A DNA stretch of 64,000 bases from the NCBI GenBank assembly GCA_036399775.1, contig DASWMJ010000096.1:69665-133664 (forward strand), in the 5' to 3' direction. This document shows positions 5,709 through 63,961 of this stretch, in pieces. Each line of letters opens with the position of its first letter. Positions within the stretch are counted from its first letter, which is position 1. Source of the DNA: Chloroflexia bacterium. GTDB lineage: Bacteria; Chloroflexota; Chloroflexia; QHBQ01; JADMIH01. The notes below the pieces were generated by a model. That model searched no databases. It was not told where the DNA came from and saw only the letters and a list, made by a program, of their open reading frames with translations. The translations under genes and the position numbers were made by a program.

Positions 5709-5801
5709 TTCCCCTCCAGGGCAGGCGTATGCAATCCAGGTGCGCGATGGTCTTTGCTCGATCTGCCTGTATGAGCCTTTTGACTGATAGCGGGCTTATT
5801 T

Positions 5802-43660: not shown

Positions 43661-43767
43661 TGCGCCGGGCTATCGCAAATATCGGAAACCATAGAGGAAA
43701 TCAAGTTGGATTACAGGTCTGCCATTTCTGAATACAGTTTTCTTCATCATATCCTGGTTTAAACCTA

Positions 43768-43894: not shown

Positions 43895-43921
43895 AAAAGG
43901 CGTAATGGAGTAGTTTACTAT

Positions 43922-44959: not shown

Positions 44960-45187
44960 CAATGTGAAGGGGGACGGCATACACAGACAAACGTCCAACT
45001 TAGATACGCCCCCTGTATGTTTTCTATAACCGTATAGCGCGCATCTGGACAGAGATAATCGCACAGCGCCCCAGTACGCACCAGCATGTTCAGCGTCAAA
45101 GGAGGTGGTCATACTGCCAGGTTAGACCAATGAAACGGTGGGTAATTGTGAACCCCCAAGTGCTCTAACTCGAAGGAGGATACTCAA

Positions 45188-46736: not shown

Positions 46737-46841
46737 TCGGTAAAAAATTAATGGTTTTCTCTTCTTGCGGCTTCCGAGGAAGCCGCAAGAAGAGAAAAAA
46801 GAATCGCGCCGGGAGCGAAAGCCAGGAAGGAGATATGGCTG

Positions 46842-47810: not shown

Positions 47811-47811
47811 A

Positions 47812-47910
47812 CGAATTACGAATTACGAATTACGAATTACGAGTTGAGAGGAACGTGTAAGAATTCGTAATTCGTAATTCGTAATTCGTAATTCGTAATT
47901 GGAAAAGTGA
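47812..47910. repeat. palindromic heptamer element (GAATTAC)n ... (GTAATTC)n
   Basis: Four and five units flanking a 20-bp core, between the two permease genes of the plus-strand operon. Confidence 0.7.
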
Positions 47911-47917
47911 GGGAAAG

Positions 47918-49003
47918 ATGGCAACTTTGGCTCAAGTAGAAAAGTCACGCCCGGTGGCATCCGCACGCCGGACCAAGTGGGGACCGCGCCGTCTTTCCGC
48001 ACAGGTGCTTATCACCTCGCTGGGGCTGGCGGTAATGCTGATATTCCTGATGCCGCTTGGCTACATGGTCATGACCGCGTTCAAGGACGATTCTCAGCTT
48101 TCCGCTCAGCGCGCGCCTCTTTGGCCCGCCAAAGCATCTACTTATACTTATGAAGGCAAGGAGCTGCCGCTTTACAATGTGCCGACAAGCGAAGGGACCA
48201 AACAGTGGGCTTTAGTCAAAGGCTTCCGCGAAGATAGCGACTTCATCGACCCTGCCCATCCTGAGCAAGGTGTGTTCAATTGGAAGGGGAGGTACCGCAC
48301 TCTTGAGCCGGTTTACCACTTCTCGCCCACGCTCGACAACTTTGTCATGGCCTGGAACCAGGTGCAGTTCGGGGTGCTATTCAAGAATACCTTCCTGATC
48401 GCCATCATCAGCACGGTCGGCACGCTGATTTCGTGCATCCTCGTGGCTTACGGGTTCGCGCGCTTTCGCATCCCAGGCAAAAATATCCTTTTCATCATCC
48501 TGATTTCGACGATAGTCCTGCCGCCACAGGCCACTATCATACCGCTCTACATCCTGTTCGCCAAGCTGGGGTGGACGGGGACGTGGCTGCCGCTACTCGT
48601 GCCCGCCTTCTTCGCCAATGCATATGACGTCTTCTTGCTGCGCCAGTATTTCATGAGCATCCCCAAGGAAATGGACGAGGCTGCGATGCTCGATGGCGCT
48701 AACCCATTGCGGACGCTCGTATCGGTCATCATCCCCCAGTCCATCCCGGCGATCACGGCGGTGACCCTCTTCCACTTCTTCTTCACGTGGAACGACTATT
48801 TCGCGCCCCTGGTCTACCTGGTAGGCAAAGAGGACCTCTACCCCATCTCGGTAGGCATAGCCAAGTTCGTAGGGACGTTCAGCATCTATCCTGGGCGAGC
48901 AATGGCAACCGCCGTGATGACCCTCATTCTCCCCGCGCTGATGTTCTTCTTCGCTCAGCGCCAGTTCATGCAGGGCGTGGTAGTCACGGGTGTAGACAAA
49001 TAA
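47918..49003 (+). CDS. carbohydrate ABC transporter permease (MalG type)
   Basis: TM profile and EAA loop (DEAAMLDGANPLRT). Confidence 0.85.
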   Translation: MATLAQVEKSRPVASARRTKWGPRRLSAQVLITSLGLAVMLIFLMPLGYMVMTAFKDDSQLSAQRAPLWPAKASTYTYEGKELPLYNVPTSEGTKQWALVKGFREDSDFIDPAHPEQGVFNWKGRYRTLEPVYHFSPTLDNFVMAWNQVQFGVLFKNTFLIAIISTVGTLISCILVAYGFARFRIPGKNILFIILISTIVLPPQATIIPLYILFAKLGWTGTWLPLLVPAFFANAYDVFLLRQYFMSIPKEMDEAAMLDGANPLRTLVSVIIPQSIPAITAVTLFHFFFTWNDYFAPLVYLVGKEDLYPISVGIAKFVGTFSIYPGRAMATAVMTLILPALMFFFAQRQFMQGVVVTGVDK

Positions 49004-49084
49004 TTTTAGATTTCCGATTTTAGATTTTAGATTGTTTCAGCGTTACCCTATTCAATCTAAAATCTAAAATCGGAAATCTAAAAT
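49004..49084. repeat. palindromic heptamer element (TTTTAGA)n ... (TCTAAAA)n
   Basis: Lies between the permease and GH1 genes. A smaller version sits at 50421-50464. Confidence 0.7.
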
Positions 49085-49102
49085 AAGGAGATTGCAATCA
49101 TA

Positions 49103-50425
49103 ATGACAACCCCGGATACTTTTCCTCCCGACTTTGCCTGGGGCGCTGCCACGGCGGCTTACCAGATCGAGGGCGCGTTCAACGAGGACGGCAGGGGAGA
49201 GTCGATATGGGACCGCTTCAGCCATACGCCGGGTAAGGTGAAGAACGGCGATACCGGCGACGTGGCATGCGACCATTACCACCGCTACCGCGAAGACATA
49301 GCCTTGATGAAGCAGATCGGCCTCAAGGCATATCGCTTTTCGACTTCCTGGCCCAGGGTCCTCCCAAACGGGCGGGGTCCCGCCAATCGCTTAGGGCTGG
49401 ATTTCTATGATAGGCTAGTGGACCAATTGCTGGAGGCGAATATCCAGCCATTCCTGACCCTGTACCACTGGGACCTGCCCCAGGCGCTGCAAGACAAGGG
49501 CGGGTGGGCCAACCGCGACACCTGCGGCTATTTCGCCGATTACGCCACGCTCATGGCCCGGCGTTTCGGCGATCGTGTGAACTACTGGACTACCTTCAAT
49601 GAGCCGTGGGTTGTTGCGTGGGTCGGCAATTACCAGGGTGAGCACGCTCCAGGCTTCACCGATATAAAGCTGGCGATGCACGCAACTCACCATCTGCTGG
49701 TCGCGCACGGGCTGGCAACGCAAGCGATCCGCACGATAGCCCCACAGGTCAACTTTGGTATCGTGCTCGATTTCGCGCCCCCGGAGCCTGCCGAAGAGAC
49801 CGAGGACAACCATGCCGCCGCAGAGTCAATCTGGCAGCGAGGTGGCGCGCTCTTCTTAGACCCACTTTTCCGGGGGCACTATCCGCCCACCGTCCAGCCG
49901 TTTGTCGAAGAATGCGAGGTGCCCGTGCAACCGGGCGACCACGCTCTCATCGCGCAACCTCTCGACTATGTCGGCGTCAACTTCTACCGGCGCATAGTGT
50001 TTGACGAGCAAGGCAACCCGGCCCGCGTTCCGGGCGCTGAGTATACCGAAATGGACTGGGAAGTCCACGCACCCGCTTTCAAGCGCCTGCTGCTTCGCCT
50101 GTCCAGCGAGTACCGCCTACCGCCCATCTACATTACCGAGAACGGGGCTGCGTTCGCGGATGAAGTCGGCAGGGATGGAGAGGTCCATGATGAGCGCCGC
50201 CTGAATTATATCCGGGAGCATCTTGGTGCCGTGCATGAAGCCATGTCGGAAGGCGCGGACGTACGCGGCTATTTTGCCTGGTCGCTGCTCGATAACTTTG
50301 AATGGGCAGAGGGCTATTCCAAGCGCTTCGGCCTCGTCTACGTTGACTACCCGACGCAAAAGCGCATCATCAAGGACAGCGGGAAATGGTACGCGCAGGT
50401 CATCGCGCAAAACCGGCTATTTTAG
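49103..50425 (+). CDS. GH1 beta-glucosidase
   Basis: FAWGAATAAYQIEGA N-terminal signature, TFNEPW acid/base and ITENGAAF nucleophile motifs, 440 aa. Confidence 0.9.
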   Translation: MTTPDTFPPDFAWGAATAAYQIEGAFNEDGRGESIWDRFSHTPGKVKNGDTGDVACDHYHRYREDIALMKQIGLKAYRFSTSWPRVLPNGRGPANRLGLDFYDRLVDQLLEANIQPFLTLYHWDLPQALQDKGGWANRDTCGYFADYATLMARRFGDRVNYWTTFNEPWVVAWVGNYQGEHAPGFTDIKLAMHATHHLLVAHGLATQAIRTIAPQVNFGIVLDFAPPEPAEETEDNHAAAESIWQRGGALFLDPLFRGHYPPTVQPFVEECEVPVQPGDHALIAQPLDYVGVNFYRRIVFDEQGNPARVPGAEYTEMDWEVHAPAFKRLLLRLSSEYRLPPIYITENGAAFADEVGRDGEVHDERRLNYIREHLGAVHEAMSEGADVRGYFAWSLLDNFEWAEGYSKRFGLVYVDYPTQKRIIKDSGKWYAQVIAQNRLF

Positions 50426-50478
50426 ATTGAATAGTTGGCTCCGAAATCTAAAATCTAAAATCACTTTGAGGTAATCTG

Positions 50479-51549
50479 ATGGACAGTCGGGGCCAACGGC
50501 GCGACCTGCTGGTAGGAGTGGACGTAGGCGGGACCAAGGTCGCCGTGCTGGTGGTTGACGGCGGCTACAACGTGCTCAGCCAGATCATGCTACCGACCGT
50601 CCTAGGCAGTTCCCAGGCCACGCTAACCTCCATCACAGGGGCTGTGCAGCAAGGCGTCGAGCAGGCGGGAGCAAGTCTGGATTGCGTAGCGGCGGTGGGC
50701 CTCGGCGTTCCGGGGAGAGTAGACACCGCAACGGGGCTTGTACGCCGCGCCGTGAACCTGGGTTGGGAAGAGCTGCCCTTCGGCCAACTCCTCTCGGCTC
50801 AGCTTGGCGTGCCATGCGTGCTCGAAAACGATGTGACGCTGGCTGCTATAGGCGCACAGCATTATATGGGCATAAGCGAAGCGAGGGGTGCCAGCCGCAA
50901 TATGGCCTATGTAAGCGTGGGCACGGGTATCGCCGCAGGGCTTGTGCTCGATGGCCGCACCTATCGAGGCGCGCACGGTATGGCAGGTGAGATCGGCCAC
51001 ATGATAATCGCCCCCGGTGGGCCTCGCTGCCAGTGTGGCGCGCACGGCTGCCTGGAAGCGGTAGCGGCAGGCCCCGCGATTGCGCGCCTGGGAGAGGAAG
51101 CTGCTTTGTCCCCCGGCGATACGCTGTTGCGCCTGTACAGGCCCGTAACCGCCGAGGCCGTGTACCAGGCAGCGAGAGATGGGGACGCTGCCGCTACTAC
51201 CATCATCCGCAAGGTAAGTGGGCACCTCGCGCTGGCTCTTCAGCAGCTTATCGTAGCCTACGACGTGGAATGCATCGTATTTGGCGGCGGTGTCTCGCGT
51301 GAGGGAGATACGTTCCTTCAGCCCATACTTGCAGAGCTAGCGCACCTGCGTGAGCAATCCGTACTGACCGGCGAGATGCTGCAACCGGACATGATTCGCG
51401 TCTTGCCGTCCGACTACGATGCGGGCGCATGGGGAGCGGTGCTGCTGGCGGCTGAAAGTACAGCACGCATCTCTCCAAAGTATAGACATGTTACCCTCCC
51501 CGACGGGGTTACAGGGGGTGCCCCCGGTAAATTCTCAGAGACGGGGTAA
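50479..51549 (+). CDS. ROK family sugar kinase (no HTH; glucokinase/GlcNAc kinase-like)
   Basis: DVGGTKV ATP motif and CQCGAHGCLE zinc motif. Lacks an N-terminal DNA-binding domain. Confidence 0.75.
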   Translation: MDSRGQRRDLLVGVDVGGTKVAVLVVDGGYNVLSQIMLPTVLGSSQATLTSITGAVQQGVEQAGASLDCVAAVGLGVPGRVDTATGLVRRAVNLGWEELPFGQLLSAQLGVPCVLENDVTLAAIGAQHYMGISEARGASRNMAYVSVGTGIAAGLVLDGRTYRGAHGMAGEIGHMIIAPGGPRCQCGAHGCLEAVAAGPAIARLGEEAALSPGDTLLRLYRPVTAEAVYQAARDGDAAATTIIRKVSGHLALALQQLIVAYDVECIVFGGGVSREGDTFLQPILAELAHLREQSVLTGEMLQPDMIRVLPSDYDAGAWGAVLLAAESTARISPKYRHVTLPDGVTGGAPGKFSETG

Positions 51550-51558
51550 AGCCAACGG

Positions 51559-51648
51559 TAGGGGCGACCCGGTGGGGCGCCCAGGGGGGGGTGGCGGATC
51601 ATGCGTGCCGGCGACCTCAGACAGGGCGACCCACCGGGTCGCCCCTAC
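51559..51648. repeat. GTAGGGGCGACCC...GGGTCGCCCCTAC palindromic MITE-like element
   Basis: Lies between the ROK kinase gene and nagZ. Same 25-bp terminal inverted repeats. Confidence 0.6.
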
Positions 51649-51692
51649 CGGAAACATATTCTTCTTCCTTCAATCTATAAATAGGAGAAATA

Positions 51693-53297
51693 ATGGGTAA
51701 TTCCGCATTCCGCATTCCGCATTCCGCAATTACTCTTGAGCAAGCCGTCGGCCAGAAGTTGCTGGCGGCCTTCCAGGGTTACCATGTACCCGACGGGTTG
51801 GTGGATTTGCTGAAGCATACGCAGATCGGCGGGGTAACTCTGTTCCGCTCGTTGAACGTGCAGAACCCCGCACAAGTACGCGACCTGACTAACGCTTTGC
51901 AAACAGCAGCGGCGACAGCCGGGCAGCCTCCACTTCTGATTTGCGCGGACCAGGAGGGCGGCCAGTTGTTGGCTATGGCAGGCACTACCCCTTTCCCTGG
52001 CAACATGGCGCTGGGGGCTACGCGCTCGCCGGAGCTTGCCCACCGCACCGGATTCGCGATTGGGCGGGAGCTTGCGGCTATGGGAATAAATGTCAATTAT
52101 GCGCCGGTGTGCGATGTGAACGTCAACCCGCAAAACCCGGTAATAGGTACCCGTTCTTTCGGTGAAGACCCTGCCGAGGTGGGGCGGCTTGGCGCGGCAA
52201 TGATCGAGGGGCTGCAAGCGGCGGGCGTGGCAGCAACGGCCAAGCACTTCCCCGGACATGGAGACACGGCCACCGACTCGCACTACGCCACGCCCGTGCT
52301 ACCCTTCGATGAAGAGCGTTTGCGCCGGGTCGAACTACCCCCGTTCAGCAGCGCGATTGAGGCGGGCGTCAAGCTGATGATGACCGCGCATATAGCCCTG
52401 CCGGGCCTCACCGGGGGCCTCGAAGTGCCTGCCACCCTTTCTCCCGCGATCATGAGGAAGCTTTTGCGAGACGATCTTGGCTTTCGTGGGGTAGTGGTTA
52501 GCGACGCGATGGATATGGGTGCCATCGAAAGGGGGCTGGGCCTCGCGATAGACTGTATAGCTGCATCGGCGGCAGGGGTTGACTTGCTGTTGCTCGCCGA
52601 CTGTGGCGAGGGCTTCCAGGCCGTGTACTCTGCCGTGCTACAAGCAGCCAGGAGAGGTCTACTTGAACCCGGCGAAATGATGGCATCGGCCCACAGAGTG
52701 CTAGAGCTGAAGGCATGGCTCAACAAGCACGAACAACCAGGATTAGAAGTAGTAAACTGCGAAGAGCATCGCGCCCTGGCCTACGAGATAGCCGCCCAAT
52801 CGGTTACCCTGCTGCGCGATACGCAGGGGTGCTTACCTTTGAGTCTCCCAGCTGAAGCACGGATAGCCCTGGTCCTGCCTCGCCCATCGGATCTCACGCC
52901 CGCCGACACTTCTTCATACGATAAGCCGGTGTTGGCAGAGATGCTGCGCCGGTACCATCCCGCCGTAGACCAAATAGATGTGCCCACCAACCCCGGTTCG
53001 TCCGATATTGGCGCGGTGTTGCAACAGGTAAAGGACTACGACCTCGTAATAGTGGGTACCATCAACGCCTTCCAGCACGAAGGGCAGGCCGCCCTGGTCA
53101 ATATGCTGCTGGAGGCAGGCAGCAAGTTAATAGCGGTGGCCCTCCGTATGCCTTATGACCTGTCGGCCTATCCGGGCGCGCCCACATATATTTGCACCTA
53201 TAACCTTCAGCCGCCGTCTATGGAAGCCCTGGCCGACGCTTTGTGGGGGCGGATTCCTTTCGTGGGGCGATCACCCGTTATGGTGGCGGGTGCCTGA
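51693..53297 (+). CDS. nagZ: GH3 family beta-N-acetylhexosaminidase (NagZ-like)
   Basis: AGGAG RBS. GH3 N-domain motifs (KHFPGHGDTATDSH, DQEGG). The first residues (NSAFRIPHSA) are encoded by a (CGCATTC)n heptamer repeat. Confidence 0.8.
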   Translation: MGNSAFRIPHSAITLEQAVGQKLLAAFQGYHVPDGLVDLLKHTQIGGVTLFRSLNVQNPAQVRDLTNALQTAAATAGQPPLLICADQEGGQLLAMAGTTPFPGNMALGATRSPELAHRTGFAIGRELAAMGINVNYAPVCDVNVNPQNPVIGTRSFGEDPAEVGRLGAAMIEGLQAAGVAATAKHFPGHGDTATDSHYATPVLPFDEERLRRVELPPFSSAIEAGVKLMMTAHIALPGLTGGLEVPATLSPAIMRKLLRDDLGFRGVVVSDAMDMGAIERGLGLAIDCIAASAAGVDLLLLADCGEGFQAVYSAVLQAARRGLLEPGEMMASAHRVLELKAWLNKHEQPGLEVVNCEEHRALAYEIAAQSVTLLRDTQGCLPLSLPAEARIALVLPRPSDLTPADTSSYDKPVLAEMLRRYHPAVDQIDVPTNPGSSDIGAVLQQVKDYDLVIVGTINAFQHEGQAALVNMLLEAGSKLIAVALRMPYDLSAYPGAPTYICTYNLQPPSMEALADALWGRIPFVGRSPVMVAGA

Positions 53298-53309
53298 GGT
53301 AGAGCACTG

Positions 53310-54467
53310 ATGCTCTATATCGAGCCTGCGGCCATTGTAACACCCGAAGGCTTGCTGGAAGATCGCGCGGTGCTTGTGGATGGCGAGCGCATCGTTGCCG
53401 TTGACTATGCCTCCCGGCTGCCATGTCCGGCGGGGGCGCGCAAACGGGAAGCGGCGGGCCTATCGCTGGCTCCCGGCTTTATCGACCTTCAGATAAATGG
53501 GGCCTTCGGTAGCGATTTCACCAACGAGCCGGGCGCTATCTGGCAAGCAGCCGCCCTACTGCCCAGGTATGGCGTCACGTCATTTCTGCCGACGATTATT
53601 AGCTCGCCGCGTGAGAGGGTGGAGATAGCCCAGGCTGTCATATGTGAGGGCCAGCCTCCAGGCTTCAGGGGTGCAACTCCGCTTGGGCTTCACCTTGAAG
53701 GGCCATTCCTCAACCCGGCAAAGCGCGGCGCGCACAACCCGGCGCACCTACGCCTGCCCGATACGGCGGAGGCTCAAGGCTGGACCCCGGATAGAGGTAT
53801 CCGTTTTGTAACGCTGGCTCCTGAGCTACCCGGCGCACTTGGGATGATCGAAATGCTGGCAGCGCGAGGCATAGTAGTCAGCGAGGGCCATTCCCTGGCT
53901 AATTATGAGGAGGGCATCGCCGGTATCAATGCGGGCATCAGATATGGCACCCACCTGTTCAACGCTATGCCCGTACTGGACCACCGGGAACCGGGGCTGG
54001 TGGGTGCGCTGCTTGGCGATGGCCGGGTAACTGTTGGGCTTATAGCCGACGGCATCCACCTGCACCCCAGCATGGTAGCGCTGGCCTGGAAAGCTAAAGG
54101 CCCCTCTCGGTTAAGCCTGGTGACGGATGCAATGGCGGCACTCGGCATGTCAGATGGCATCTATAAACTGGCGGACCAGGACGTGATTGTAGCGGGTGAG
54201 GCGGCCCGCCTGGCAGACGGCAGGTTGGCGGGAAGCGTGCTGACCCTGGACCAGGCTGTGCGCAACCTGATCAGTTTTGCAGGTTGTAGTCCATGCGATG
54301 CCATCTCCACCGTAACTACCGTACCTGCATCGCTACTTGGAATGGCGGACTCGCGAAGCCAGATCGCCCCAGGCTCCCGCGCCGACATGGTATTGCTGGA
54401 CGGCGGTCTGCGCGTTGTGGAGACGCTGGTCGCCGGAGAGGTCGTTTATTCAACACGGGCCGATTAA
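53310..54467 (+). CDS. nagA: N-acetylglucosamine-6-phosphate deacetylase
   Basis: GFIDLQINGAFG metal-binding motif and amidohydrolase fold signatures, 385 aa. Confidence 0.85.
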   Translation: MLYIEPAAIVTPEGLLEDRAVLVDGERIVAVDYASRLPCPAGARKREAAGLSLAPGFIDLQINGAFGSDFTNEPGAIWQAAALLPRYGVTSFLPTIISSPRERVEIAQAVICEGQPPGFRGATPLGLHLEGPFLNPAKRGAHNPAHLRLPDTAEAQGWTPDRGIRFVTLAPELPGALGMIEMLAARGIVVSEGHSLANYEEGIAGINAGIRYGTHLFNAMPVLDHREPGLVGALLGDGRVTVGLIADGIHLHPSMVALAWKAKGPSRLSLVTDAMAALGMSDGIYKLADQDVIVAGEAARLADGRLAGSVLTLDQAVRNLISFAGCSPCDAISTVTTVPASLLGMADSRSQIAPGSRADMVLLDGGLRVVETLVAGEVVYSTRAD

Positions 54468-54512
54468 GAAGTAGGCAGGCTGAGCAAGGCAGAAACAGGG
54501 AAAGGAGAAGGC

Positions 54513-55553
54513 GTGGCACTCAGAGACGAGATATTAGAGCAGCCGGGTGTCTTGCGTGGCTGGATAGAGACGCAGATGCAAACGGCGTCCGGTATAGCCG
54601 AGGCTATCCTTTCGCGCGACGTGCAATACATCTTCCTGGCGGCGAGGGGTAGCTCAGACCACGCAGGAGTGTACGCGCAGTACCTTTTTAGCGCGCGGAA
54701 TCGCCTGGCGGTAGCCCTGGCAACGCCGTCGCTGTTTACGATGTACCCTCAGTCGCCCCGGCTGCACAACTCGCTCGTGATCGGCATATCGCAGTCCGGC
54801 CAGTCTCCCGATATAGTGAGTGTTATCGCCGAAGGAAGACGACAGGGCGCTATTACCCTGGCTATCACCAACGACTCTGACTCTCCGTTGGCGCGGGCCG
54901 CCGAGCTTACCCTGGGGTTACACACAGGGCCGGAGAAAGCCGTGGCCGCCACCAAGACTTACACCGCACAGCTGTTGGCGCTGGGTGCGCTCTCTGTTGC
55001 CCTGGCGGGAAACAAAGAAGCTGACTTGGCTGACCTGGCCGGGGTGCCTGACGCAGTACAATCGGCGCTGGAACTGGAGCCGGAAGCCGAGCGAATCGCC
55101 GGAAGACACGCTTTAATGGATCACTGTGTGGTGCTGGGGCGCGGTTACAACTATGCCACGGCCCAGGAATGGGCGTTGAAGCTCAAGGAGCTTGCATACG
55201 TATTTACGGATGTTTACTCTACGGCAGATTTCCGGCACGGGCCGATAGCGATAGTCGAGCCGGGTTTCCCGGTGCTGGCCGTAGCTCCGCAAGGGGCGGT
55301 CCTGGCGGACCAGTTAGCCTTATTCTCAAGGCTGCGCGACGACTACAAGGCTAAACTGGTAATCATCTCGGACAGCGACCAGGCGCTGTCCCTGGGGGCT
55401 GAGAAGTTACGCCTGCCACCTGGGCTGTCCGAGTGGCTGACCCCAATCGTTAGCATCGTCCCGGCCCAGTTGTTCTGCTACCATCTCACCCGCGCTAAGG
55501 GTTACGATACCGAGAACCCTCGCATGCTGCACAAGATAACTCTGACCGAATAG
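54513..55553 (+). CDS. SIS-domain sugar isomerase, GlmS-like glucosamine-6-phosphate deaminase (NagB-II/AgaS type)
   Basis: Two SIS domains (GISQSGQSPD, second SIS with SDSD). GTG start after an AAAGGAGA RBS. Position after nagA. Confidence 0.7.
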   Translation: MALRDEILEQPGVLRGWIETQMQTASGIAEAILSRDVQYIFLAARGSSDHAGVYAQYLFSARNRLAVALATPSLFTMYPQSPRLHNSLVIGISQSGQSPDIVSVIAEGRRQGAITLAITNDSDSPLARAAELTLGLHTGPEKAVAATKTYTAQLLALGALSVALAGNKEADLADLAGVPDAVQSALELEPEAERIAGRHALMDHCVVLGRGYNYATAQEWALKLKELAYVFTDVYSTADFRHGPIAIVEPGFPVLAVAPQGAVLADQLALFSRLRDDYKAKLVIISDSDQALSLGAEKLRLPPGLSEWLTPIVSIVPAQLFCYHLTRAKGYDTENPRMLHKITLTE

Positions 55554-55653: not shown

Positions 55654-55766
55654 GAAACTTGACGCAGAGGCGGCATAAGTGCGAAACTCTACAACGCATT
55701 CAGCAAACAGGAAACCCTTAGCGTCCATTGGCTCGGTCACAATTTGAACACGAGAGGAGGAGTAAT

Positions 55767-57287
55767 ATGCCAGAGTTCGCTTGTATTAACTACGACCTGG
55801 TAGGAATTTATCGTACCCCTGAACGTGAGGGGTATGCTGGAACGCTTGCCTGGGGAGATACGGTCGAGGTACTGGAAAAAACGAATACATACTTGAAGGT
55901 ACCATACTATTTGCGCAACAAGGATGGGAGCCTGCAATCTGAGCCTTCTCCCTGCTACATTATCCCCAGGAAGGTTACGCCTGATGAAATCATCGTTGCT
56001 CCCGAAGAGAATAAGGTCTTGCGTATGGACTTCGTTGATGTGCAACAGGGTGATGGCTCCATCGTCCAGACCCCAAAAGGGAAGACGATAATCATCGACG
56101 GGGGGATGGGCAACCTCTTCGCACGTTATCTTGCCGCCAGATACCGGGGTAGCTCCAAAGACAATCCCCAGCAGTTCGACTGCATCGTTGTGACGCACGG
56201 GGACGCGGATCACTTCGCCGGCCTCACAGCCATCCATGCAACGGAGAAGAATGACTCAAAGAGTAAGCGCCTATTCATGTATCCGAGACGTGTTTATCAC
56301 AATGGCCTTGTCAAGCGCCCTGGCAAAATGAACGGGCAGGACCTTACTCCCAAAGAGATGTTTGGGGCCACCGTACCCATAGGCAATCGAACCATCATCA
56401 CCGATCTAGTGGACGATCTCACGCAGACGCCGGATACGGTGATGAACGAGCCATTTCGCGCCTGGAAAAAGGCGCTCTCCAGTTACCGGCAACGCTATGA
56501 AGGTCCGTTCGGACCTATGGATATTCGGAGGCTGGCCTACGGAGACGATGATGCCTTCAGCTTCCTCTCAGATGAGGGGATAAAGGTGGAGGTCCTTGGC
56601 CCTATACCTTATGAGAAAGATGGCATATATGGGTTACCTTTTTTGGGTGCGCCCTCGCGAAACCCACGCCTCGAAGATGAGTCTTTGGACCTATCGGACG
56701 AAGTCTTCAAGGGTACGGACGATTCGCATACTATCAACGGCCACTCGGTGCTCCTGAGGCTGACGTACGGAAACGTAAGATTACTGTACACGGGTGACAT
56801 GAACAACCAGAGCGAAAGGACCCTGGTCAGGCAGCATAAAGAGAAGCTCAGCGCAGAAGTTATGAAAGTGCCTCACCACGGTTCGCATGATTTCTCTGCT
56901 GCTTTTCTCAGGGCGGTTTCACCGCTGGTATCCGTGGTCTCTTCGGGTGACGAGAATGAAAGAGTCGAATATATACACCCTCGGGCCAATCTGATGGGAG
57001 CGCTTGGTCGATACTCAAGGGTCTCCGAACCGCTGGTGTTCGTAACAGAACTGGTCGCCTTCTTCAAGTATGAGGGCTATGCAAGACCCGTATCCGACGC
57101 TGATGCACAGGAGCGAGGTAGCTTTATTGCATTCAGCAGGTCGGCTTGGGGGATCGTTCGCGTACGGACTGACGGACATCGTCTCTTTGTTTACACGGAC
57201 AGCGGTAAGCGAGGGCAGTTTGAAACCTATGCCTACACAATAGAGGATGGAGCAGTACCCCAGGCGACCAAGGTGCGAGCAACGTGA
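55767..57287 (+). CDS. ComEC-type MBL-fold metallo-hydrolase with an N-terminal SH3-like domain
   Basis: GAGAGGAGGAG RBS. Motifs VVTHGDADHFAGL (HxHxDH) and LxLTYGNVRLLYTGD...KVPHHGSHD, typical of the ComEC/Rec2 beta-lactamase-like nuclease domain. N-terminal approximately 70 aa (CINYDLVGIYRTPEREGYAGTLAWGDTVEVLEKTNTYLKV) resemble bacterial SH3. GC about 50% versus 62% flanking. Confidence 0.7.
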   Translation: MPEFACINYDLVGIYRTPEREGYAGTLAWGDTVEVLEKTNTYLKVPYYLRNKDGSLQSEPSPCYIIPRKVTPDEIIVAPEENKVLRMDFVDVQQGDGSIVQTPKGKTIIIDGGMGNLFARYLAARYRGSSKDNPQQFDCIVVTHGDADHFAGLTAIHATEKNDSKSKRLFMYPRRVYHNGLVKRPGKMNGQDLTPKEMFGATVPIGNRTIITDLVDDLTQTPDTVMNEPFRAWKKALSSYRQRYEGPFGPMDIRRLAYGDDDAFSFLSDEGIKVEVLGPIPYEKDGIYGLPFLGAPSRNPRLEDESLDLSDEVFKGTDDSHTINGHSVLLRLTYGNVRLLYTGDMNNQSERTLVRQHKEKLSAEVMKVPHHGSHDFSAAFLRAVSPLVSVVSSGDENERVEYIHPRANLMGALGRYSRVSEPLVFVTELVAFFKYEGYARPVSDADAQERGSFIAFSRSAWGIVRVRTDGHRLFVYTDSGKRGQFETYAYTIEDGAVPQATKVRAT

Positions 57288-57311
57288 GTTACGGAGCGTA
57301 AGGTGGACACT

Positions 57312-58634
57312 ATGCAACCACAAGCAACGCTAGTGGTCAAGGTCAGGATGTACCGTCAGGGGTTCGGAGACTGCTTCTTGCTCTCATTCCTGAGGGGCGG
57401 CCAAACCTTCAATATGCTCATCGACTGCGGAGTGCTCGAGAATACCGAGAAAAAGGCGGCTATAATGCGGTTGGTAGCCCAAGACATCAAGGTGGTAACT
57501 GCCAATCGTATCGACCTCCTTGTAGCTACGCATCGGCACTGGGACCACGTGTCGGGGTTTCTTCAAGCGCGAAGGGTGTTCGGGAGTATGGAAGTGGGGC
57601 GAATATGGATGCCCTGGACGGAAAATCCGATCGATCAGCAAGCCGCCAGGATGTGGAAACGTAGTCGTGCTAACCTACTGCTAACGCGGAAGTTGATTAC
57701 CAAGAGCGAATCGAAAGAAGCGCAGGTGCCTTCAGTTCATCAGGGTGGGAAGACGGAGAAAATGGAGGACCTACGTGCTGGGATTGACTCTATCCTAAGC
57801 TTCTCCATGGACACTCATCCTGATGCAGGATCTACGCGCGAGGTGGTTCGCAACGACCCGAGGCAAGCACTAGCCTATGTTTCGACGCTCGGGCAAGCGC
57901 CTTTGTGGTATCTTGAGCCAGACGTATCCACAGAGGCTGCGCCGCTCACCCTTCCGGGCCTGGAGGGTGTTCGCATCTACGTGCTTGGACCCCCGAGAGA
58001 TATGATGCTGCTTAGCCACGACTATCCGAACCAGTGGGACGCGGAAGATACTATCTATGGCCTCTCCGATCTAATGAAGGACAGTGAGGATAATAAGCTC
58101 AGACGGGCGTTCAGGCGTGCTCTGTCGCTCGACTCGGTTGTGAACAACACCAGCCTGGCTTTGGCGATTGAGTTAACTGAAAGTGGCAAGGTGCTGCTCT
58201 TCCCAGCGGACGCTCAGATAGGCAATTGGGAGTCCTGGAGCAACCTATCGTGGAGGGTGCGAGCCGCAGATGGCTCTTCATGGGTGGTGCGCATCGAGGA
58301 TCTATTGAGTCGTACTGTGCTCTATAAAGTAAGTCATCATGGTAGTCACAATGGGACGTTGCGCCGACGCGGGCTAGAGCTGATGAACCACACGGATCTG
58401 GTCGCTATGGTCCCTGTAGACTTGGAGACCGCCGCTGAGCGGCTTTGGTGGCGAATACCCGAGGCTCAGCTGATGAATAGTCTGAAAGTACATACACGGG
58501 GGCGTGTTATCCGATCCGACACAGGGTTGCCTGACCGAGATGACCTCAAGAGGCTGTCATCGCAAGAAACAGCAGCATTTATAGCTGCGACTCGACAGCA
58601 AGATATGTGGGTCGAACTTACAATACATGAATAG
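57312..58634 (+). CDS. ComEC-type MBL-fold metallo-hydrolase, second paralogous copy
   Basis: AAGGTGGA RBS. VATHRHWDHVSG (HxHxDH), LALAIELTESGKVLLFPADA and KVSHHGSHNG motifs. Same architecture as the upstream gene but diverged, 441 aa. Confidence 0.7.
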   Translation: MQPQATLVVKVRMYRQGFGDCFLLSFLRGGQTFNMLIDCGVLENTEKKAAIMRLVAQDIKVVTANRIDLLVATHRHWDHVSGFLQARRVFGSMEVGRIWMPWTENPIDQQAARMWKRSRANLLLTRKLITKSESKEAQVPSVHQGGKTEKMEDLRAGIDSILSFSMDTHPDAGSTREVVRNDPRQALAYVSTLGQAPLWYLEPDVSTEAAPLTLPGLEGVRIYVLGPPRDMMLLSHDYPNQWDAEDTIYGLSDLMKDSEDNKLRRAFRRALSLDSVVNNTSLALAIELTESGKVLLFPADAQIGNWESWSNLSWRVRAADGSSWVVRIEDLLSRTVLYKVSHHGSHNGTLRRRGLELMNHTDLVAMVPVDLETAAERLWWRIPEAQLMNSLKVHTRGRVIRSDTGLPDRDDLKRLSSQETAAFIAATRQQDMWVELTIHE

Positions 58635-58663: not shown

Positions 58664-58692
58664 TTGACATGCGAGCAAATGTCTGCTACACT
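58664..58692 (+). promoter_or_regulatory. sigma70 promoter of the T-box leader
   Basis: TTGACA (58664-58669), 17-nt spacer, TACACT (58687-58692). Confidence 0.7.
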
Positions 58693-58699
58693 GGGCGAA

Positions 58700-58982
58700 A
58701 TTGAATAGCGGCGACGAGCCGCATGCCCGCGTCGAAGTGGAATAGTAGCTACATCAAGGATTTGCAGCGAATCGGGAGATGGTGCAAGCCCGGTAGACCT
58801 GGCGTAGCGAACCGGCCATGGAGCGGTCCGCCGAAGAAAGCCCAACGGCGAGCAAGTAGGATGGAGTGGTTGGTCACCACGCACAAAATAACCACGAGCG
58901 GTCACAGGCCAAAAATGTGACAATTAGGGTGGTACCGCGGGAGCCATGCTCTCGTCCCTTGCTTTGGGACGGGAGTTTTTTG
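58700..58982 (+). promoter_or_regulatory. T-box riboswitch leader RNA (tRNA-sensing transcription attenuator)
   Basis: Canonical T-box sequence AATTAGGGTGGTACCGCG at 58923-58940. It is immediately followed by an intrinsic terminator (stem CTCTCGTCCC / GGGACGGGAG, 58949-58975, then TTTTTTG), and the T-box 3' half can alternatively pair with the terminator 5' arm to form an antiterminator. Leader of about 283 nt between promoter and ATG 59015. Possible specifier GAA-GAA-A or AAG/AAA near 58833-58839. Confidence 0.75.
58949..58982 (+). terminator. intrinsic terminator of the T-box leader
   Basis: 10-bp stem (one G-U) CTCTCGTCCC / GGGACGGGAG with a 7-nt loop and a TTTTTTG tract. Confidence 0.7.
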
Positions 58983-59014
58983 TTGCCCGGAATCGGCGGG
59001 AGGAGGATCGGGTC

Positions 59015-60088
59015 ATGCAAGTAACGCTGGGCAAGATAGCCTCGGTGACGGCGCGGGTGAGACTGCCCCACCAGGTGGAGATAGGCGATTACGTCTGCGC
59101 AGAGCGCGGCGCGGTGATAGTGGTCGAAGCTCTTGAAGAGAAGTCGGTGTACGGAGAGCTTGAGCTGCTCGGCGGCAGGATGGCTCGCATCATCAAGGGC
59201 GACGTGATGGCGGGCGTGCTGGGCGAGCGCCAGGCCCTCAAAGGTTTCGTGGGCCACATCCCTGAGCGCATAGAGCCGGGTGACACTCTCCACGTCCTGA
59301 ATATGGGTGGGGTCATAGGGCTGTGTAGCTCCGCCAACACCGATTTCGGCCAGGCGTTGCGGGTGCGCGTGCTCGGTTCGGCCATAGTTGACGGCGAACC
59401 TGCCAGCATCGCCCGCGACGCGCTCCCCTGGCGCAACTCCCTCCACAGGAGCGCGCCTATCATCCTCGTCTCCGGCACCTGCATGAACGCGGGCAAGACT
59501 ACAGCGGCGTGCGAGAGCCTACGCGTGCTGTCGAGCAGGGGGTACCGGATCGCAGCCGCCAAGCTCGCGGGCGTTGCCACTCAGCGCGACCTGCTGAATA
59601 TGCAAGATCACGGCGCGATAGCGGCGCTCTCATTCAGCGACGCGGGCCTCCCCTCCACCACCGGCACCGATAGCTGCTTGGTGCCCGCCGCCAAAGGCGT
59701 GCTGGCTGCCCTCAACGCCTCCCAGCCTGACGCCATAATCGTGGAGTTCGGCGACGGTATCATGGGGCACTACGGCGTGGATATACTCCTGCGGGACGCC
59801 GAATTGATGGGCCACGTGCGAGCGCACATCCTCTGCGCCAACGACCTTGTCGCCGCGTGGGGCGGACTGCGCTACCTCGAAGGGATGGGCGTGCGTGTAG
59901 ACTGCATATCAGGCCCGGCCACCGACAACACGGCGGGCGTAGATTACATCAACAAGCATTTCAGCATGCAAGCCGCCAACGGTCGCACGCAACCCACTCT
60001 CCTGGCCGACATGGTGGAAGCCCTGGCCTTCCCAGGCAACTCCCATTCGATGTCTGGCAGAATGATAGAAGATAGGGACGTGGCGTAA
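59015..60088 (+). CDS. P-loop protein, DUF1611-like (possible DgcN-type N-acetyltransferase), first gene of the T-box operon
   Basis: GGGAGGAGG RBS and ATG 59015. The upstream ATG of the ORF track lies inside the terminator hairpin. P-loop-like VSGTCMNAGKTT. Stop overlaps the argC start (ATGA). Family assignment from recall only. Confidence 0.45.
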   Translation: MQVTLGKIASVTARVRLPHQVEIGDYVCAERGAVIVVEALEEKSVYGELELLGGRMARIIKGDVMAGVLGERQALKGFVGHIPERIEPGDTLHVLNMGGVIGLCSSANTDFGQALRVRVLGSAIVDGEPASIARDALPWRNSLHRSAPIILVSGTCMNAGKTTAACESLRVLSSRGYRIAAAKLAGVATQRDLLNMQDHGAIAALSFSDAGLPSTTGTDSCLVPAAKGVLAALNASQPDAIIVEFGDGIMGHYGVDILLRDAELMGHVRAHILCANDLVAAWGGLRYLEGMGVRVDCISGPATDNTAGVDYINKHFSMQAANGRTQPTLLADMVEALAFPGNSHSMSGRMIEDRDVA

Positions 60089-61179
60089 TGGCTATACGGC
60101 AATTCTCCATGTCGCGGCCCGCGCGGGTAGCGGTGGTGGGCGCATCGGGGTATATCGGCGGGGAGGCGTTGCGCCTGCTGCTGGGGCACCCGTGCGTAGA
60201 AGTGGCAGCGGTAACGTCGCAGTCACATGCAGGCAAGCTCGTTGCCGAGGTACACCCACACCTGGCCCATACCACGGAACTCAACTTCGTCGGCGACCTG
60301 CCCCCGGAGGCTGCGAGCGAGTATGACGCAATCTTCCTGGCGCTGCCGCACGGCGCTGCCATGTCCCGCGTGCCGCAGATGCTGGCTCATATGGGAGAGG
60401 GCGGTCCGAGAGGCGACGGCCCGCTCATATTGGACTTGAGCGGCGACTTTCGCATTAAGGAGGAGGCGCAGTTCCAGAGATACTACGGGCTGCAACACAC
60501 GGCCTCCGAGTGGGCCGGGCGTGCGGCTTATGGCTTGACCGAATGGAACCGCGAAGCCATAAGGGAGGCGCGATTGGTGGCGTGCCCTGGCTGCTTCCCG
60601 ACCGGCTCGCTGCTGGCCCTTACGCCGCTCGCTCGCGCCGGACTGCTGACCGGGAACGTAGTGATCGACTCCAAGACAGGCTCGTCGGGTTCCGGCAAAG
60701 AGCCGGGCGAGGGCACCCATCACCCCACGCGGGCGAACGACTTCCGCGCTTATGGCCTGCTCAAGCACCGCCACTTGCCGGAAATCGTCCAGGAACTCGC
60801 TAAGTGGCATCTCCAGGACAGCGCAAGCCTTCGCGTGGTCTTCACGCCCCATTCCGCCCCGATGGTGAGGGGCATATTCACTACGGCCTACGTCTTCCCT
60901 TCGCGCCCGGTCAGCAAGGAGGAGCTACGCGATATATACGAGCAGGCTTACCAGGGCGAGTATTTCGTGCGGTTGGTGGAGTCGCCCCGCGTAGGCGTGG
61001 TAGCCCACTCCAACTTCTGCGACATAGCCGCCGTGACCGATGGCGAGGGCGCTATCATAGTAACCAGCGCCATAGACAATCTCGTAAAAGGCGGCGCGGG
61101 CCAGGGCGTGCAAAACCTCAACGTAGCATTCGACTGGCCCGAAAATCTCGGCCTAACCTTCCCAGGCACGATGCCATAA
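60088..61179 (+). CDS. argC: N-acetyl-gamma-glutamyl-phosphate reductase (ArgC/LysY type)
   Basis: VVGASGYIGGEALRLL NAD motif and catalytic-Cys region LVACPGCFPTG, 363 aa. Confidence 0.85.
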   Translation: MAIRQFSMSRPARVAVVGASGYIGGEALRLLLGHPCVEVAAVTSQSHAGKLVAEVHPHLAHTTELNFVGDLPPEAASEYDAIFLALPHGAAMSRVPQMLAHMGEGGPRGDGPLILDLSGDFRIKEEAQFQRYYGLQHTASEWAGRAAYGLTEWNREAIREARLVACPGCFPTGSLLALTPLARAGLLTGNVVIDSKTGSSGSGKEPGEGTHHPTRANDFRAYGLLKHRHLPEIVQELAKWHLQDSASLRVVFTPHSAPMVRGIFTTAYVFPSRPVSKEELRDIYEQAYQGEYFVRLVESPRVGVVAHSNFCDIAAVTDGEGAIIVTSAIDNLVKGGAGQGVQNLNVAFDWPENLGLTFPGTMP

Positions 61180-61267: not shown

Positions 61268-62464
61268 ATGGTTGCAACGATAGATACCGCCACCGGCAGG
61301 CAGGCTGTGATTGACGAAGAAAACAGGGCGCAACTGGGCACATATGCCAAGCTGCCTATAGTGGCGGTGCGGGGTAGCGGCATCATGCTGTACGACGCAT
61401 CGGGCCAGGCATACTACGACTTTTACTGCGGGCACGCCGTAACGCTCCTGGGGCATTGCCACCCCAGGGTCGTGCAGGCGATAAAGGAGCAGGCCGAGCG
61501 CCTCATTTTCTACTCGAACATCGTTTACAACGACGTGCGGGCGCAGTACGCCGCCGCGCTGGTGGGGGTTGCGCCGAGGGGTTACGGGCAGGTCTTTTTC
61601 TGCAATTCGGGGGCCGAGGCCAACGAGACCGCGCTCAAGCTGGCGCGCAAATATACCGGAAGGCCGACCATGCTGGCGATGGACGGCAGCTTTCACGGGC
61701 GGACGATGGGCGCGCTCGCCATGACCAGCAACCCGAAGTATAGGCAGGGCTTCGAGCCGCTACTTCCGGGCGTTGAGTTCGTACCGTTCGGCGACCTGGC
61801 TGCCACACAGGCCAGATTGGAGAAAGGCGACATCGCCGCCATCATAATTGAGCCTATACAGAGCATCGCGGGCGTGCGAATGGAGGGGGCTGAATACTAC
61901 AGGGCGTTGCGAGAGCTTTGCGATAGGCATGGCTCGCTGCTCATCTTTGACGAGATACAGACAGGACTTGGCCGCACGGGCAAGCTGTGGGCAGGCGAAC
62001 ACTGGGATGTCGTGCCCGATATTATCACGCTGGCTAAGGGCATAGCGAGCGGCGTGCCGATGGGGGCTACGCTTATCTCCACGCACATCGCTGAGACGGT
62101 TCATCTTGATGAGCACGGCTCGACCTTCGGAGGCTCGCCTATCGCCTGCGCCGCCGCCTCTGCTACGTTGGGCGCTATCCTCGAAGATAACATGGTGGAG
62201 CACGCCGGGGCTATGGGTAGGCTAATGGTAGAGAAACTGGGCGGGTTGCCCCACATCCAGGAGATACGGGGGATGGGCCTCTTGCTAGGCTTATGCCTCG
62301 ACGTGCCCGCGAAGGACGTGCAGTACGCCGCGCTCGAACGCGGCGTCATCCTCGGCACTTCGGGCGATCCGAACGTATTGCGTATCATGCCTCCGATGGT
62401 GGTCACGCCGGAGGATGTGGAGCACCTGGCATCGGTGTTGCGAGACGTGCTGCAAGGTATTTAG
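61268..62464 (+). CDS. argD: acetylornithine aminotransferase (class III; ArgD/LysJ type)
   Basis: Class III aminotransferase motifs (FCNSGAEANE, IFDEIQTGLGRTG PLP-lysine region), 398 aa. Confidence 0.85.
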   Translation: MVATIDTATGRQAVIDEENRAQLGTYAKLPIVAVRGSGIMLYDASGQAYYDFYCGHAVTLLGHCHPRVVQAIKEQAERLIFYSNIVYNDVRAQYAAALVGVAPRGYGQVFFCNSGAEANETALKLARKYTGRPTMLAMDGSFHGRTMGALAMTSNPKYRQGFEPLLPGVEFVPFGDLAATQARLEKGDIAAIIIEPIQSIAGVRMEGAEYYRALRELCDRHGSLLIFDEIQTGLGRTGKLWAGEHWDVVPDIITLAKGIASGVPMGATLISTHIAETVHLDEHGSTFGGSPIACAAASATLGAILEDNMVEHAGAMGRLMVEKLGGLPHIQEIRGMGLLLGLCLDVPAKDVQYAALERGVILGTSGDPNVLRIMPPMVVTPEDVEHLASVLRDVLQGI

Positions 62465-62472
62465 TGGCGTCC

Positions 62473-63348
62473 ATGATGGATGAGACAGGCGCAGATTCAT
62501 ACTTAGGGCAGCACAAAGGCAAGCGTTTCGTCGTCAAACTGGGTGGCGAAGTGATGCTGAACGCCGCCGGACTGCGCGCGCTTTCAGCCGACATAGCTAC
62601 CCTAGCGCGATCCGGCGTGGGGGTGGTCATCGTGCATGGCGGCGGCCCGCAAGCCGACGCGCTAGCCGCTAAGCTGGGGCACCGGGTACGCAAGGTAGCA
62701 GGTCGCCGCGTGACCGACGACGATGCCCTGGAAGTAGCGAAGATGGTGTACGGCGGCAGTATCAACCTGGAATTGCTGGCCGCGTTGAGGGCCGCAGGCG
62801 CGCAGGGGGTGGGCCTTTCAGGGGTCGACGCGACGCTGATAACGGCCACGCGCCGCATGCCTGTCGTGGTACGCGACCAGCATACCGGCACAGATGAGAT
62901 GGTGGACTTCGGGCACGTAGGGGATATTGCCGCCGTAGACGTTTCGCTGGTGGACTTGCTACTGGGAGCGGGCTACGTGCCGGTGGTAGCTTCGCTGGCT
63001 GCCGACGATGAGGGCAACCTGTACAACGTCAACGCGGATACGGTCGCGCAGGCGCTTGCCGTCGCCCTCCATGCGGACAGGCTATACCTGCTGACCAACG
63101 TGCCCGGCATCCTGCTCGACCCAACCGACCCAGGTTCGCTCCTACCCATCTGCACGCGCGAGCAGGCAGAGCGGCTGATTAGGCAGGGAGTGATCTCCGG
63201 TGGGATGCTCCCAAAGGTGCTGAACTGCCTGCAAGCCCTGGCGGATGGCGTGCGGCAGGTCCAGATTCTAGACGGCACCCAGGAGAGGTCGCTGCTGCTT
63301 GAAAGCCTGGCCCCCAATGCTGAGGTGGGAACGCTGCTGGTCGAATAA
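62473..63348 (+). CDS. argB: acetylglutamate kinase (ArgB/LysZ type)
   Basis: VVKLGGEVM nucleotide-binding start and amino-acid kinase fold. Start set at ATG 62473 just after the argD stop; the longer track ORF overlaps argD. Confidence 0.85.
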   Translation: MMDETGADSYLGQHKGKRFVVKLGGEVMLNAAGLRALSADIATLARSGVGVVIVHGGGPQADALAAKLGHRVRKVAGRRVTDDDALEVAKMVYGGSINLELLAALRAAGAQGVGLSGVDATLITATRRMPVVVRDQHTGTDEMVDFGHVGDIAAVDVSLVDLLLGAGYVPVVASLAADDEGNLYNVNADTVAQALAVALHADRLYLLTNVPGILLDPTDPGSLLPICTREQAERLIRQGVISGGMLPKVLNCLQALADGVRQVQILDGTQERSLLLESLAPNAEVGTLLVE

Positions 63349-63502: not shown

Positions 63503-63961
63503 CTACCTGAAGCCGAGCAGGCGGGAGCGGTACAACCTGAAGCGAAGGAAGAGGAAGCAGCCGAGGCAGAAGCCCGCCAGCGCTACCGCCGCAGCAACGG
63601 CCACCATCAGCGACAGCGCCCACCCGATAACGGGCAGCCCCAGCATGAACGCTACCTGCGCCAGCCCAAGCAGTACGACGGCTATCGAATTGTTGAAGCG
63701 CATGAGGCGGCGGTCTTCACCTTCCCCATCGGCGGCGATGCGCGACGCCAGCAAGCGCTGGCCCACCTGGAAGATGAGGCTGCGACGCTGGCCGTACAGC
63801 ACGGCAGGTAGCAATATCAGGAAAAGTAAAGTCGTTATGAGAGGTTGCTGAAGCAGCAGGCCCGCCACTATGCCCGTCAATAGCGTCCAGCGATTGAGGC
63901 GTACTATAGGCATAGGTATGTCGCTGCACAGTCCCGCCTCTTCTGTCTTATTCTTATCCAT
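63503..63961 (-). CDS. hypothetical small membrane protein
   Basis: 152 aa with 3-4 TM helices. No recognisable family from sequence alone. Confidence 0.35.
   Translation of the reverse strand: MDKNKTEEAGLCSDIPMPIVRLNRWTLLTGIVAGLLLQQPLITTLLFLILLPAVLYGQRRSLIFQVGQRLLASRIAADGEGEDRRLMRFNNSIAVVLLGLAQVAFMLGLPVIGWALSLMVAVAAAVALAGFCLGCFLFLRFRLYRSRLLGFR

Follow-up and report, generated by a model that had tools for sequence, protein, structure and literature searches.

The T-box leader and its operon

Here we characterized a T-box riboswitch and the ORF1-argC-argD-argB unit behind it in a 64,000-nt stretch of DNA from an uncultured Chloroflexia bacterium (contig DASWMJ010000096.1; this whole stretch is the window, and coordinates are window positions on the forward strand unless a locus is named). 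The leader is confirmed as a genuine, canonical, transcription-attenuating T-box of the RF00230 type, and it is structurally ordinary. Its specifier codon, CCG at 58812-58814, encodes proline. The actual oddity of this locus is that its arginine operon carries a proline codon, which an initial annotation made from the letters of the DNA had not seen.

Using cmscan in E-value mode, we obtained a match to RF00230 at 58723-58962 (forward strand) that covers model positions 1-219 of 219, with a score of 91.7 bits and an E-value of 9.7e-21. With default settings, Rfam returned no hit anywhere in the window, because this score falls under the gathering score of 93. No further T-boxes were found in the window. 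Leaders of the same subfamily in 11 related loci (L007, L009, L011, L013, L014, L016, L018, L020, L021, L022, and L025) were also scanned against RF00230, and the gathering score was reached by 2 of 14, the orthologous leaders of L014 (101.4 bits) and L009 (97.4 bits).

Upstream of the leader is a sigma-70-type promoter with an extended -10 TG (58664-58692), in which TTGACA (58664-58669) and TACACT (58687-58692) are separated by 17 nt and match the consensus at 10 of 12 positions. Two promoter-like sites were found versus 0.4 expected in shuffles, and homologous promoters lie upstream of related leaders in L016 and L013. Counted from a start approximately 7 nt past the -10 element, the leader up to and including the T run is ~283 nt long. 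The T-box sequence AATTAGGGTGGTACCGCG (RNA form AAUUAGGGUGGUACCGCG) occupies 58922-58939, and together with the antiterminator it spans 58922-58959, as determined by the cmscan alignment and by folding. Two helices make up the antiterminator, A1 (AGGG at 58926-58929 with CCCU at 58956-58959) and A2 (GCGGGAGC/GCUCUCGU, 58937-58944 with 58948-58955), along with a 7-nt bulge, UGGUACC (58930-58936). The N of its UGGN position is U, which would pair with A73. The intrinsic terminator (58948-58981) consists of an 11-bp stem (58948-58976) with a 7-nt loop, followed by TTTTTT, and its 5' arm doubles as the 3' strand of the antiterminator. When the RNA was cut before the 3' terminator arm, the minimum-free-energy fold was the canonical antiterminator at -14.6 kcal/mol, whereas the segment including that arm preferred the terminator fold at -26.2 kcal/mol.

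The initial annotation had proposed a canonical T-box from four elements, namely a TTGACA-17-TACACT promoter, a leader of about 283 nt, the invariant T-box sequence, and a terminator sharing its 5' arm with the antiterminator. All four are present where it had placed them. The assignment itself is upheld by the full-length RF00230 match, by covariation among related leaders, and by the antiterminator as the minimum-free-energy fold; the Infernal scan that it had suggested as a check gave the match above, with a bit score below the curated cut-off. The joint presence of promoter, T-box sequence, antiterminator, terminator, and Rfam match is far beyond chance.

Stem I extends over 58727-58826 in the cmscan alignment. 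From the base, it contains a helix CCGC/GCGG, a GA (kink-turn) region, the helix GUGG/CCAU, the specifier loop, and an upper helix GCUAC/GUAGC, along with an AG bulge (GCAGCGA) and a distal loop (AGAUGGUGCAAG). Stem II (58825-58865) includes the segment CCGAAGAAAG in its GA/S-turn region and is followed by Stem IIA (GUGGU/ACCAC) with the IIB pseudoknot (58866-58894) and by Stem III (GUCACA/UGUGAC, 58901-58921), the last placed by both the cmscan and the leader alignments.

We then compared these elements across an alignment of 25 leaders, which was also made into a profile for the leader search described below. In the family structure 94.4% of cells were paired, versus 37-49% when the partners were slid, and 23 of 55 pairs showed compensatory change on both sides; none of 500 shuffles reached the observed values. 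The compensatory changes fall in every Stem I helix, in Stem II (UA/CG changes in helices 6-8), and in Stem IIA (helix 9, with 10 sequences changing UA to GC on both sides); comparison with orthologous leaders was among the checks that the initial annotation had suggested. The IIB pseudoknot, UGGU (58871-58874) with ACCA (58891-58894), is 97% paired with no compensatory change (helix 10). The antiterminator is 100% paired, and it and the terminator 5' arm are invariant, which makes them uninformative for covariation and is expected of the T-box core. RNAalifold also proposed a long-range pairing between CCGCC in Stem II and GGUGG in the T-box, which was disregarded since it involves invariant columns only and runs counter to the family model.

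First among the regulated genes is ORF1 (59015-60088), encoding 357 amino acids. It starts 33 nt past the T run, behind a ribosome-binding site, GGAGGAGGA, at 59000-59008, and a conserved N-terminal motif, M-x-[VI]-x-L-D-K-I-A-S, pins down this start. The start of argC (60088-61179; N-acetyl-gamma-glutamyl-phosphate reductase, TIGR01850, 379.7 bits versus a cut-off of 233.6) overlaps the ORF1 stop codon. Next are argD (61268-62464; acetylornithine-family aminotransferase, TIGR00707, 414.2 versus 410.05) and argB (62473-63348; acetylglutamate kinase, TIGR00761, 226.9 versus 151.3), the last gene of the unit, which is bounded downstream by a convergent DUF4395 open reading frame (63503-63961, reverse strand). 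The argC-argD-argB assignment of the initial annotation holds, with all three genes passing NCBIfam equivalog or subfamily cut-offs, but the operon does not begin at argC as it had supposed, ORF1 having been overlooked.

The specifier codon

Both the cmscan alignment and the Stem I fold assign GAA-CCG-G (58809-58815) to the 3' side of the specifier loop. The 5' side is AAUAGUA at 58741-58747, with an AGUA S-turn half. In the cmscan alignment, CCG occupies the three columns preceding the last unpaired purine of the loop, G58815, after which the helix strand CCAU pairs with GUGG. Stem I folded alone gave an identical 7 x 7 internal loop of AAUAGUA and GAACCGG. Two internal controls address the frame. 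The T-box ahead of trpE in related metagenome-assembled genomes (MAGs; L001) aligns GAA-UGG-A in the same model columns, and sister leaders ahead of argG, argF' (N-acetylornithine carbamoyltransferase), and argH carry CGC there. The codon is read as CCG because the cmscan columns, the lone Stem I fold, and the Trp and Arg controls all give this frame; folding Stem I had been put forward in the initial annotation as the way to find the specifier. A +1 codon frame, giving Arg, Pro, or Ala, was rejected based on the Trp control and gene context.

In the canonical specifier position the window leader has the CCN codon of the proline class, and no CGN or AGR codon of the arginine class, which is found in its CGC sister leaders. 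It does not control proBA, proI, or proS, as would be typical of proline-class leaders, and ORF1, argC, argD, and argB lie downstream instead.

Related leaders and gene clusters in Chloroflexia

For comparison we used 80 loci encoding ORF1 relatives (L001-L080) and 12 further metagenome contigs found through a Stem III pattern. An nhmmer search with the 25-leader profile identified 43 leaders of the subfamily, all in Chloroflexia loci and each ahead of argG or ORF1; the same search found none in 51 loci of other phyla. The specifier triplet was read in 29 aligned leaders and 13 metagenome leaders, and it is only ever CCG or CCC, which are synonymous for proline, or CGC for arginine. The preceding GAA is invariant and the next base is always a purine.

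Two leaders occur together in 7 genomes or contigs (JBDTQH, CAWCNY, JBBRPH, JBJMMB, L009, L016, and L013/L091), and in all 7 one is Pro-type and the other Arg-type. If the types were drawn independently, the chance of this would be about 0.7%. Which type heads which half of the pathway varies among genomes. Leader pairs within a genome are 76-88% identical, versus a mean of 78% over all pairs, and in three same-contig pairs compared by position most of the differences fall within upper Stem I and at the specifier, which suggests duplication followed by a switch of specificity. These alignments indicate that a promoter-leader cassette may have been duplicated repeatedly, that a single base (CGC to CCC) would be enough to re-assign its specificity, and that selection may retain both types. 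A promoter was detected for each of the two leaders in L016 and only for the second, Arg-type leader in L013.

Within Chloroflexia, each transcription unit of these clusters is headed by a subfamily leader. The cluster is intact in L009-L011, L016, and L025. In the split form it is divided into ORF1a-argCDB(-carAB) and argG-ORF1b-argF'-argH(-carAB), with ORF1 duplicated; in the ORF1 tree, the paralogues often cluster by genome and not by regulation type. Units behind Pro-type leaders range from ORF1 alone (L022, monocistronic) and ORF1-...-carA (L014) to ORF1-argCDB-carAB (L020) and ORF1-argCDB-argF'-argH (L009, L016). Pro-type leaders gate early steps in the window and elsewhere also argF'-argH (L009, L016) and carA(B) (L014, L020). 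In L009, an Arg T-box (3889-4164) heads argG and a Pro T-box (5605-5874) lies inside the cluster ahead of ORF1-argCDB-argF'-argH. The arrangement is the same in L016 (3913-4173 and 5619-5880), where the Pro T-box has its own promoter. Since the Pro T-box sits inside these two clusters, late arginine genes also come under a Pro-type leader. A further arrangement is seen in L013 (1307-1983) and L091 (4573-5249, reverse strand), where two complete T-boxes stand in tandem ahead of ORF1-argCDB, CCG (Pro) followed by CGC (Arg), and the second has its own promoter located between them.

Outside Chloroflexia the cluster takes the form argG-ORF1-argC-argD-argF'-argB(-argH), with no subfamily T-box. ORF1 arginine clusters also occur in Planctomycetota, Acidobacteriota/Thermoanaerobaculia, Wallbacteria, Cloacimonadota, and one Methanosarcinales MAG. 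The argF' product of the Chloroflexia loci scanned is an N-acetylornithine carbamoyltransferase by NF003384, at 396-426 bits versus a cut-off of 288 (L018 7092-8189, L016 10304-11401, and L025 10278-11456 were tested); elsewhere the argF' assignment comes solely from a tblastn match to the L018 protein. This enzyme type would imply a route that passes through acetylcitrulline and bypasses free ornithine.

Several other RNA and regulatory features were observed in these loci. The trpE (anthranilate synthase component I) T-box with its UGG specifier is found at L001 2597-2946 (reverse strand) and likewise in L002-L004, and in all of L001-L004 it lies 3 kb from the arg leader; at 76.2 bits it is also under the RF00230 gathering score. 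L016 contains a second terminator-like hairpin (4181-4208), a copy of the T-box terminator arm directly past the Arg T-box terminator, and the 5' part of a further subfamily leader (12964-13017) past argH at the locus end. In L022, a divergent gene for an ANTAR-domain response regulator (an RNA-binding antiterminator; 4725-5804, reverse strand) adjoins the Pro T-box-ORF1 unit. An Acido-Lenti-1 sRNA (RF01687) was detected just downstream of argB in the Chloroflexota MAG locus L007 (10603-10648, reverse strand), at 46 bits versus a gathering score of 37.

Alternative readings of the specifier

Could the leader instead sense tRNA-Arg? The CCGG of the loop would then be read one base downstream as CGG, or both tRNAs would be recognized through overlapping codons; a two-codon T-box is known from Clostridium acetobutylicum. 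The window loop GAACCGG does contain CGG, but this frame leaves no unpaired purine before the helix, as C58816 already pairs in GUGG/CCAU, and the Trp control fixes the frame one base earlier. All of the regulated genes belong to arginine biosynthesis, yet a separate CGC class already provides arginine sensing in the same genomes, and the sister class CCC-G (CCC-A in L026) has the same genomic role with no Arg codon in any frame. The UGGC of some leaders, which suits a G73 tRNA, speaks for tRNA-Arg as well. On balance, we regard arginine sensing by the window leader as unlikely.

It is more doubtful still that the Pro-type specifier reflects a tolerated one-base drift of an Arg T-box, leaving the operon mis-wired or effectively constitutive. 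CGC to CCC is indeed one substitution, and in the ORF1 tree the Pro and Arg types are intermixed. Such drift is hard to reconcile with approximately 20 Pro-type leaders of many species that retain every other T-box element, with synonymous CCG/CCC variation among them, and with the Arg-type partner leader present in every two-leader case. A codon one base upstream, ACC or ACG, would assign a single amino acid, threonine, to the whole subfamily, given that GA-ACC-GG, GA-ACC-CG, and GA-ACG-CG all hold Thr codons. We consider this very improbable, because two bases, the first often C, would then lie between codon and helix where the family rule is one purine, a rule that the Trp control of the same lineage (GAA-UGG-A) obeys; the A of the supposed codon also belongs to the conserved GAA S-turn motif, and threonine is unconnected to argG, argF', argH, and carAB. 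Finally, we see almost no chance for the proposal of the initial annotation, a Glu or Lys specifier in the GAAGAAA stretch (58833-58839) ahead of lysY-lysJ-lysZ of a LysW-type lysine pathway, since cmscan places this candidate (CCGAAGAAAG) in Stem II, where it is unchanged in 24 of 25 leaders whatever their specifiers and the GAAGAAA itself is constant in all 25, and since the aminotransferase and kinase match LysJ (346 versus 700) and LysZ (158.8 versus 223) only below threshold whereas the Arg equivalogs pass, the unit has no LysW-like small gene or ATP-grasp LysX, and the related clusters carry argG, N-acetylornithine carbamoyltransferase, argH, and carAB.

ORF1

No Pfam or NCBIfam family is assigned to ORF1, and its matches to DUF1611, CbiA, and MobB in Pfam are all under their cut-offs. 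It has at least 2665 homologs, the closest of which is 95% identical and is named 'hypothetical protein [Chloroflexia bacterium]'. In the AlphaFold model (mean confidence, pLDDT, 91.8), an N-terminal beta domain is followed by a P-loop domain at the C-terminus. Among PDB structures searched with Foldseek, the model matched best to dethiobiotin synthetases (DTBS; E 3e-6, TM-score 0.49-0.57 on the target) and other SIMIBI NTPases. The P-loop, GTCMNAGKT, aligns with DTBS GTDTEVGKT, although weakly (E 0.085). From the predicted structure, ORF1 likely belongs to the DTBS-like (SIMIBI) fold class.

ORF1 is a conserved member of arginine clusters that have neither argJ/argA nor argE. It may supply the acetyl-handling step that these clusters otherwise miss, either N-acetylglutamate synthesis or acetyl removal and recycling. 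Literature searches on DUF1611/DgcN and on novel N-acetylglutamate synthases returned nothing fitting ORF1, and ArgA2 and ArgA3 (PMC9026213) were rejected as relatives, being GNAT and M20-type proteins. In two loci a small gene separates ORF1b from carA. In L019 (7225-7701) it encodes a 158-amino-acid GNAT acetyltransferase, a possible short N-acetylglutamate synthase, and in L014 (3587-4072) a 161-amino-acid protein without a family. If the L019 protein is such a synthase, ORF1 would more likely act in acetyl removal or recycling.

Proposed mechanism and link to proline

We consider it likely that uncharged tRNA-Pro antiterminates ORF1-argCDB through this canonical attenuator. Polymerase would start approximately 7 nt past TACACT and synthesize the ~283-nt leader. 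By default the terminator (58948-58976 and the T run) would form and transcription would halt before ORF1. With tRNA-Pro(CGG) present, Stem I would offer CCG (58812-58814) to the anticodon, with the AG bulge and distal loop docking the tRNA elbow. The free 3' end (ACCA) of an uncharged tRNA would then pair with UGGU (58930-58933) in the antiterminator bulge, stabilizing the antiterminator, which takes up the terminator 5' arm and allows read-through. In this scheme we infer tRNA-Pro as the actual effector, and the operon would be switched on by proline limitation and not by arginine, lysine, or glutamate limitation.

Proline control of arginine genes would be explained if the lineage draws its proline from the arginine/ornithine pathway, as it probably does, so that proline starvation must raise the flux through that pathway. 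In suppressor strains of B. subtilis, a documented route leads from the arginine pathway by way of ornithine and pyrroline-5-carboxylate (P5C) to proline (PMC9245794). A more tentative proposal, which we hold as possible and not as probable, combines proline made through the arginine pathway, from glutamate over acetylated intermediates to ornithine or arginine and on to proline, so that tRNA-Pro charging would gate arginine-pathway genes, with dual Arg/Pro control by cassette duplication and the CGC to CCC flip, and casts ORF1 as an unrecognized P-loop enzyme replacing ArgA/ArgJ or ArgE.

Several observations weigh against proline sensing or against the route behind it. The RF00230 score is 1.3 bits under the Rfam gathering score, the CCGG of the window loop also holds an Arg codon, CGG, one base downstream, and the genes under control are all arginine genes. 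Two Pro-type leaders (L020 and L023) carry UGGC instead of UGGU, which calls for G73, and bacterial tRNA-Pro usually has A73. The T-boxes in series in L013 and L091 would amount to AND-like logic, outside the simple model. No tRNA genes were found in the window or in 41 Chloroflexia loci, the sole ARAGORN call (in L016, inside argB) being probably spurious. Likewise, genes for proC, ornithine cyclodeaminase, arginase, and ornithine aminotransferase were found neither beside the Pro-type leaders nor in the ~19 kb preceding the window T-box. Since no proline-specific gene occurs in the flanks examined, which hold sugar-utilization, MBL-fold, glyoxalase, DUF5996, cupin, rhodanese, PALP, and molybdopterin oxidoreductase genes, the arginine-to-proline route is argued on logical grounds.

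Genes upstream of the promoter

Just upstream of the promoter, two adjacent genes (55728-57287 and 57303-58634) encode MBL-fold proteins with weak, sub-threshold matches to the ComEC C-terminal domain and to Avs1a / 6A-MBL defense-system models. Farther upstream, a cluster for sugar/N-acetylglucosamine utilization (42452-55553), unrelated to the T-box, includes a ROK regulator, LacI, a 532-amino-acid protein without a family, two ABC permeases, GH1, a ROK kinase, GH3, a NagA-like amidohydrolase, and a SIS-domain GlmS/NagB-II-like protein.

Comparison with known T-box systems

In Bacillus subtilis, proBA and proI are controlled by tRNA-Pro-responsive T-boxes (Brill et al. 2011, as cited in PMC9245794). 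As far as that citation describes them, the window leader is of the same RNA family and mechanism, with a CCN specifier tying a biosynthetic operon to uncharged tRNA-Pro. The enzymes differ, since proBA and proI encode glutamate kinase, glutamyl-phosphate reductase, and P5C reductase of the direct route in that account, and ORF1-argC-argD-argB encodes acetylated arginine-pathway enzymes. The hosts are also different, Chloroflexia here versus Bacillales. The codon of the Chloroflexia leaders is CCG or CCC, and that of the B. subtilis proline T-box is CCU.

Arg-specific T-boxes precede argCJBDF, argG, and argH in Clostridioides difficile and C. bartlettii (PMC3766115, supplement 2). They resemble the present system in controlling arginine biosynthetic operons, and the CGC sister leaders (L018, L021, L025, and others) are their direct analog. 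In contrast, the window leader has a Pro codon, its operon contains no argJ and begins with an uncharacterized P-loop protein, and in the related loci N-acetylornithine carbamoyltransferase takes the place of argF.

The initial annotation had called a T-box in a non-Firmicute genome unusual. The host is indeed a non-Firmicute, but the rarity was overstated, as T-boxes are published for this phylum, ahead of glyS, ileS, serS, thrS, trpS/trpB, valS, and pheST in Chloroflexus, Roseiflexus, and Herpetosiphon (PMC3766115) and ahead of ileS and trp in Dehalococcoides (PMC2494555). The window leader shares with these its phylum, RNA family, and terminator-type regulation. For Chloroflexi, however, the two surveys list only aminoacyl-tRNA synthetase and trp targets; neither T-boxes for Arg or Pro nor targets in the arginine pathway are among them.

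Duplication of a T-box combined with a switch of its specifier is a described evolutionary mode (Vitreschak et al. 2008, as cited in PMC3766115). Near-identical leaders in one genome that differ in the specifier triplet fit that mode as it is cited there. What differs from the cited description is that the switch here is between Arg and Pro, within one metabolic family, on interchangeable pathway halves, and that it recurs across many species. In the literature searched, we came across neither a T-box with a Pro specifier on arginine genes nor the ORF1 family. The locus is noteworthy for its proline/arginine cross-wiring with recurrent specifier switching, for a subfamily lying below the Rfam cut-off, and for a widely conserved, uncharacterized ORF1.

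Because the subfamily falls just under that cut-off, routine annotation misses most arg T-boxes of Chloroflexia MAGs. The near-identical leaders offer a natural example of T-box specificity re-assigned by one base. ORF1, with thousands of homologs and no family name, is flagged as a strong candidate to fill an unassigned step in the arginine biosynthesis of several phyla. Which amino acid an operon serves can be read directly from its specifier codon, and a proline codon with a constant arginine-codon twin predicts that this lineage, which has no cultured member, would make its proline by way of the arginine/ornithine route.

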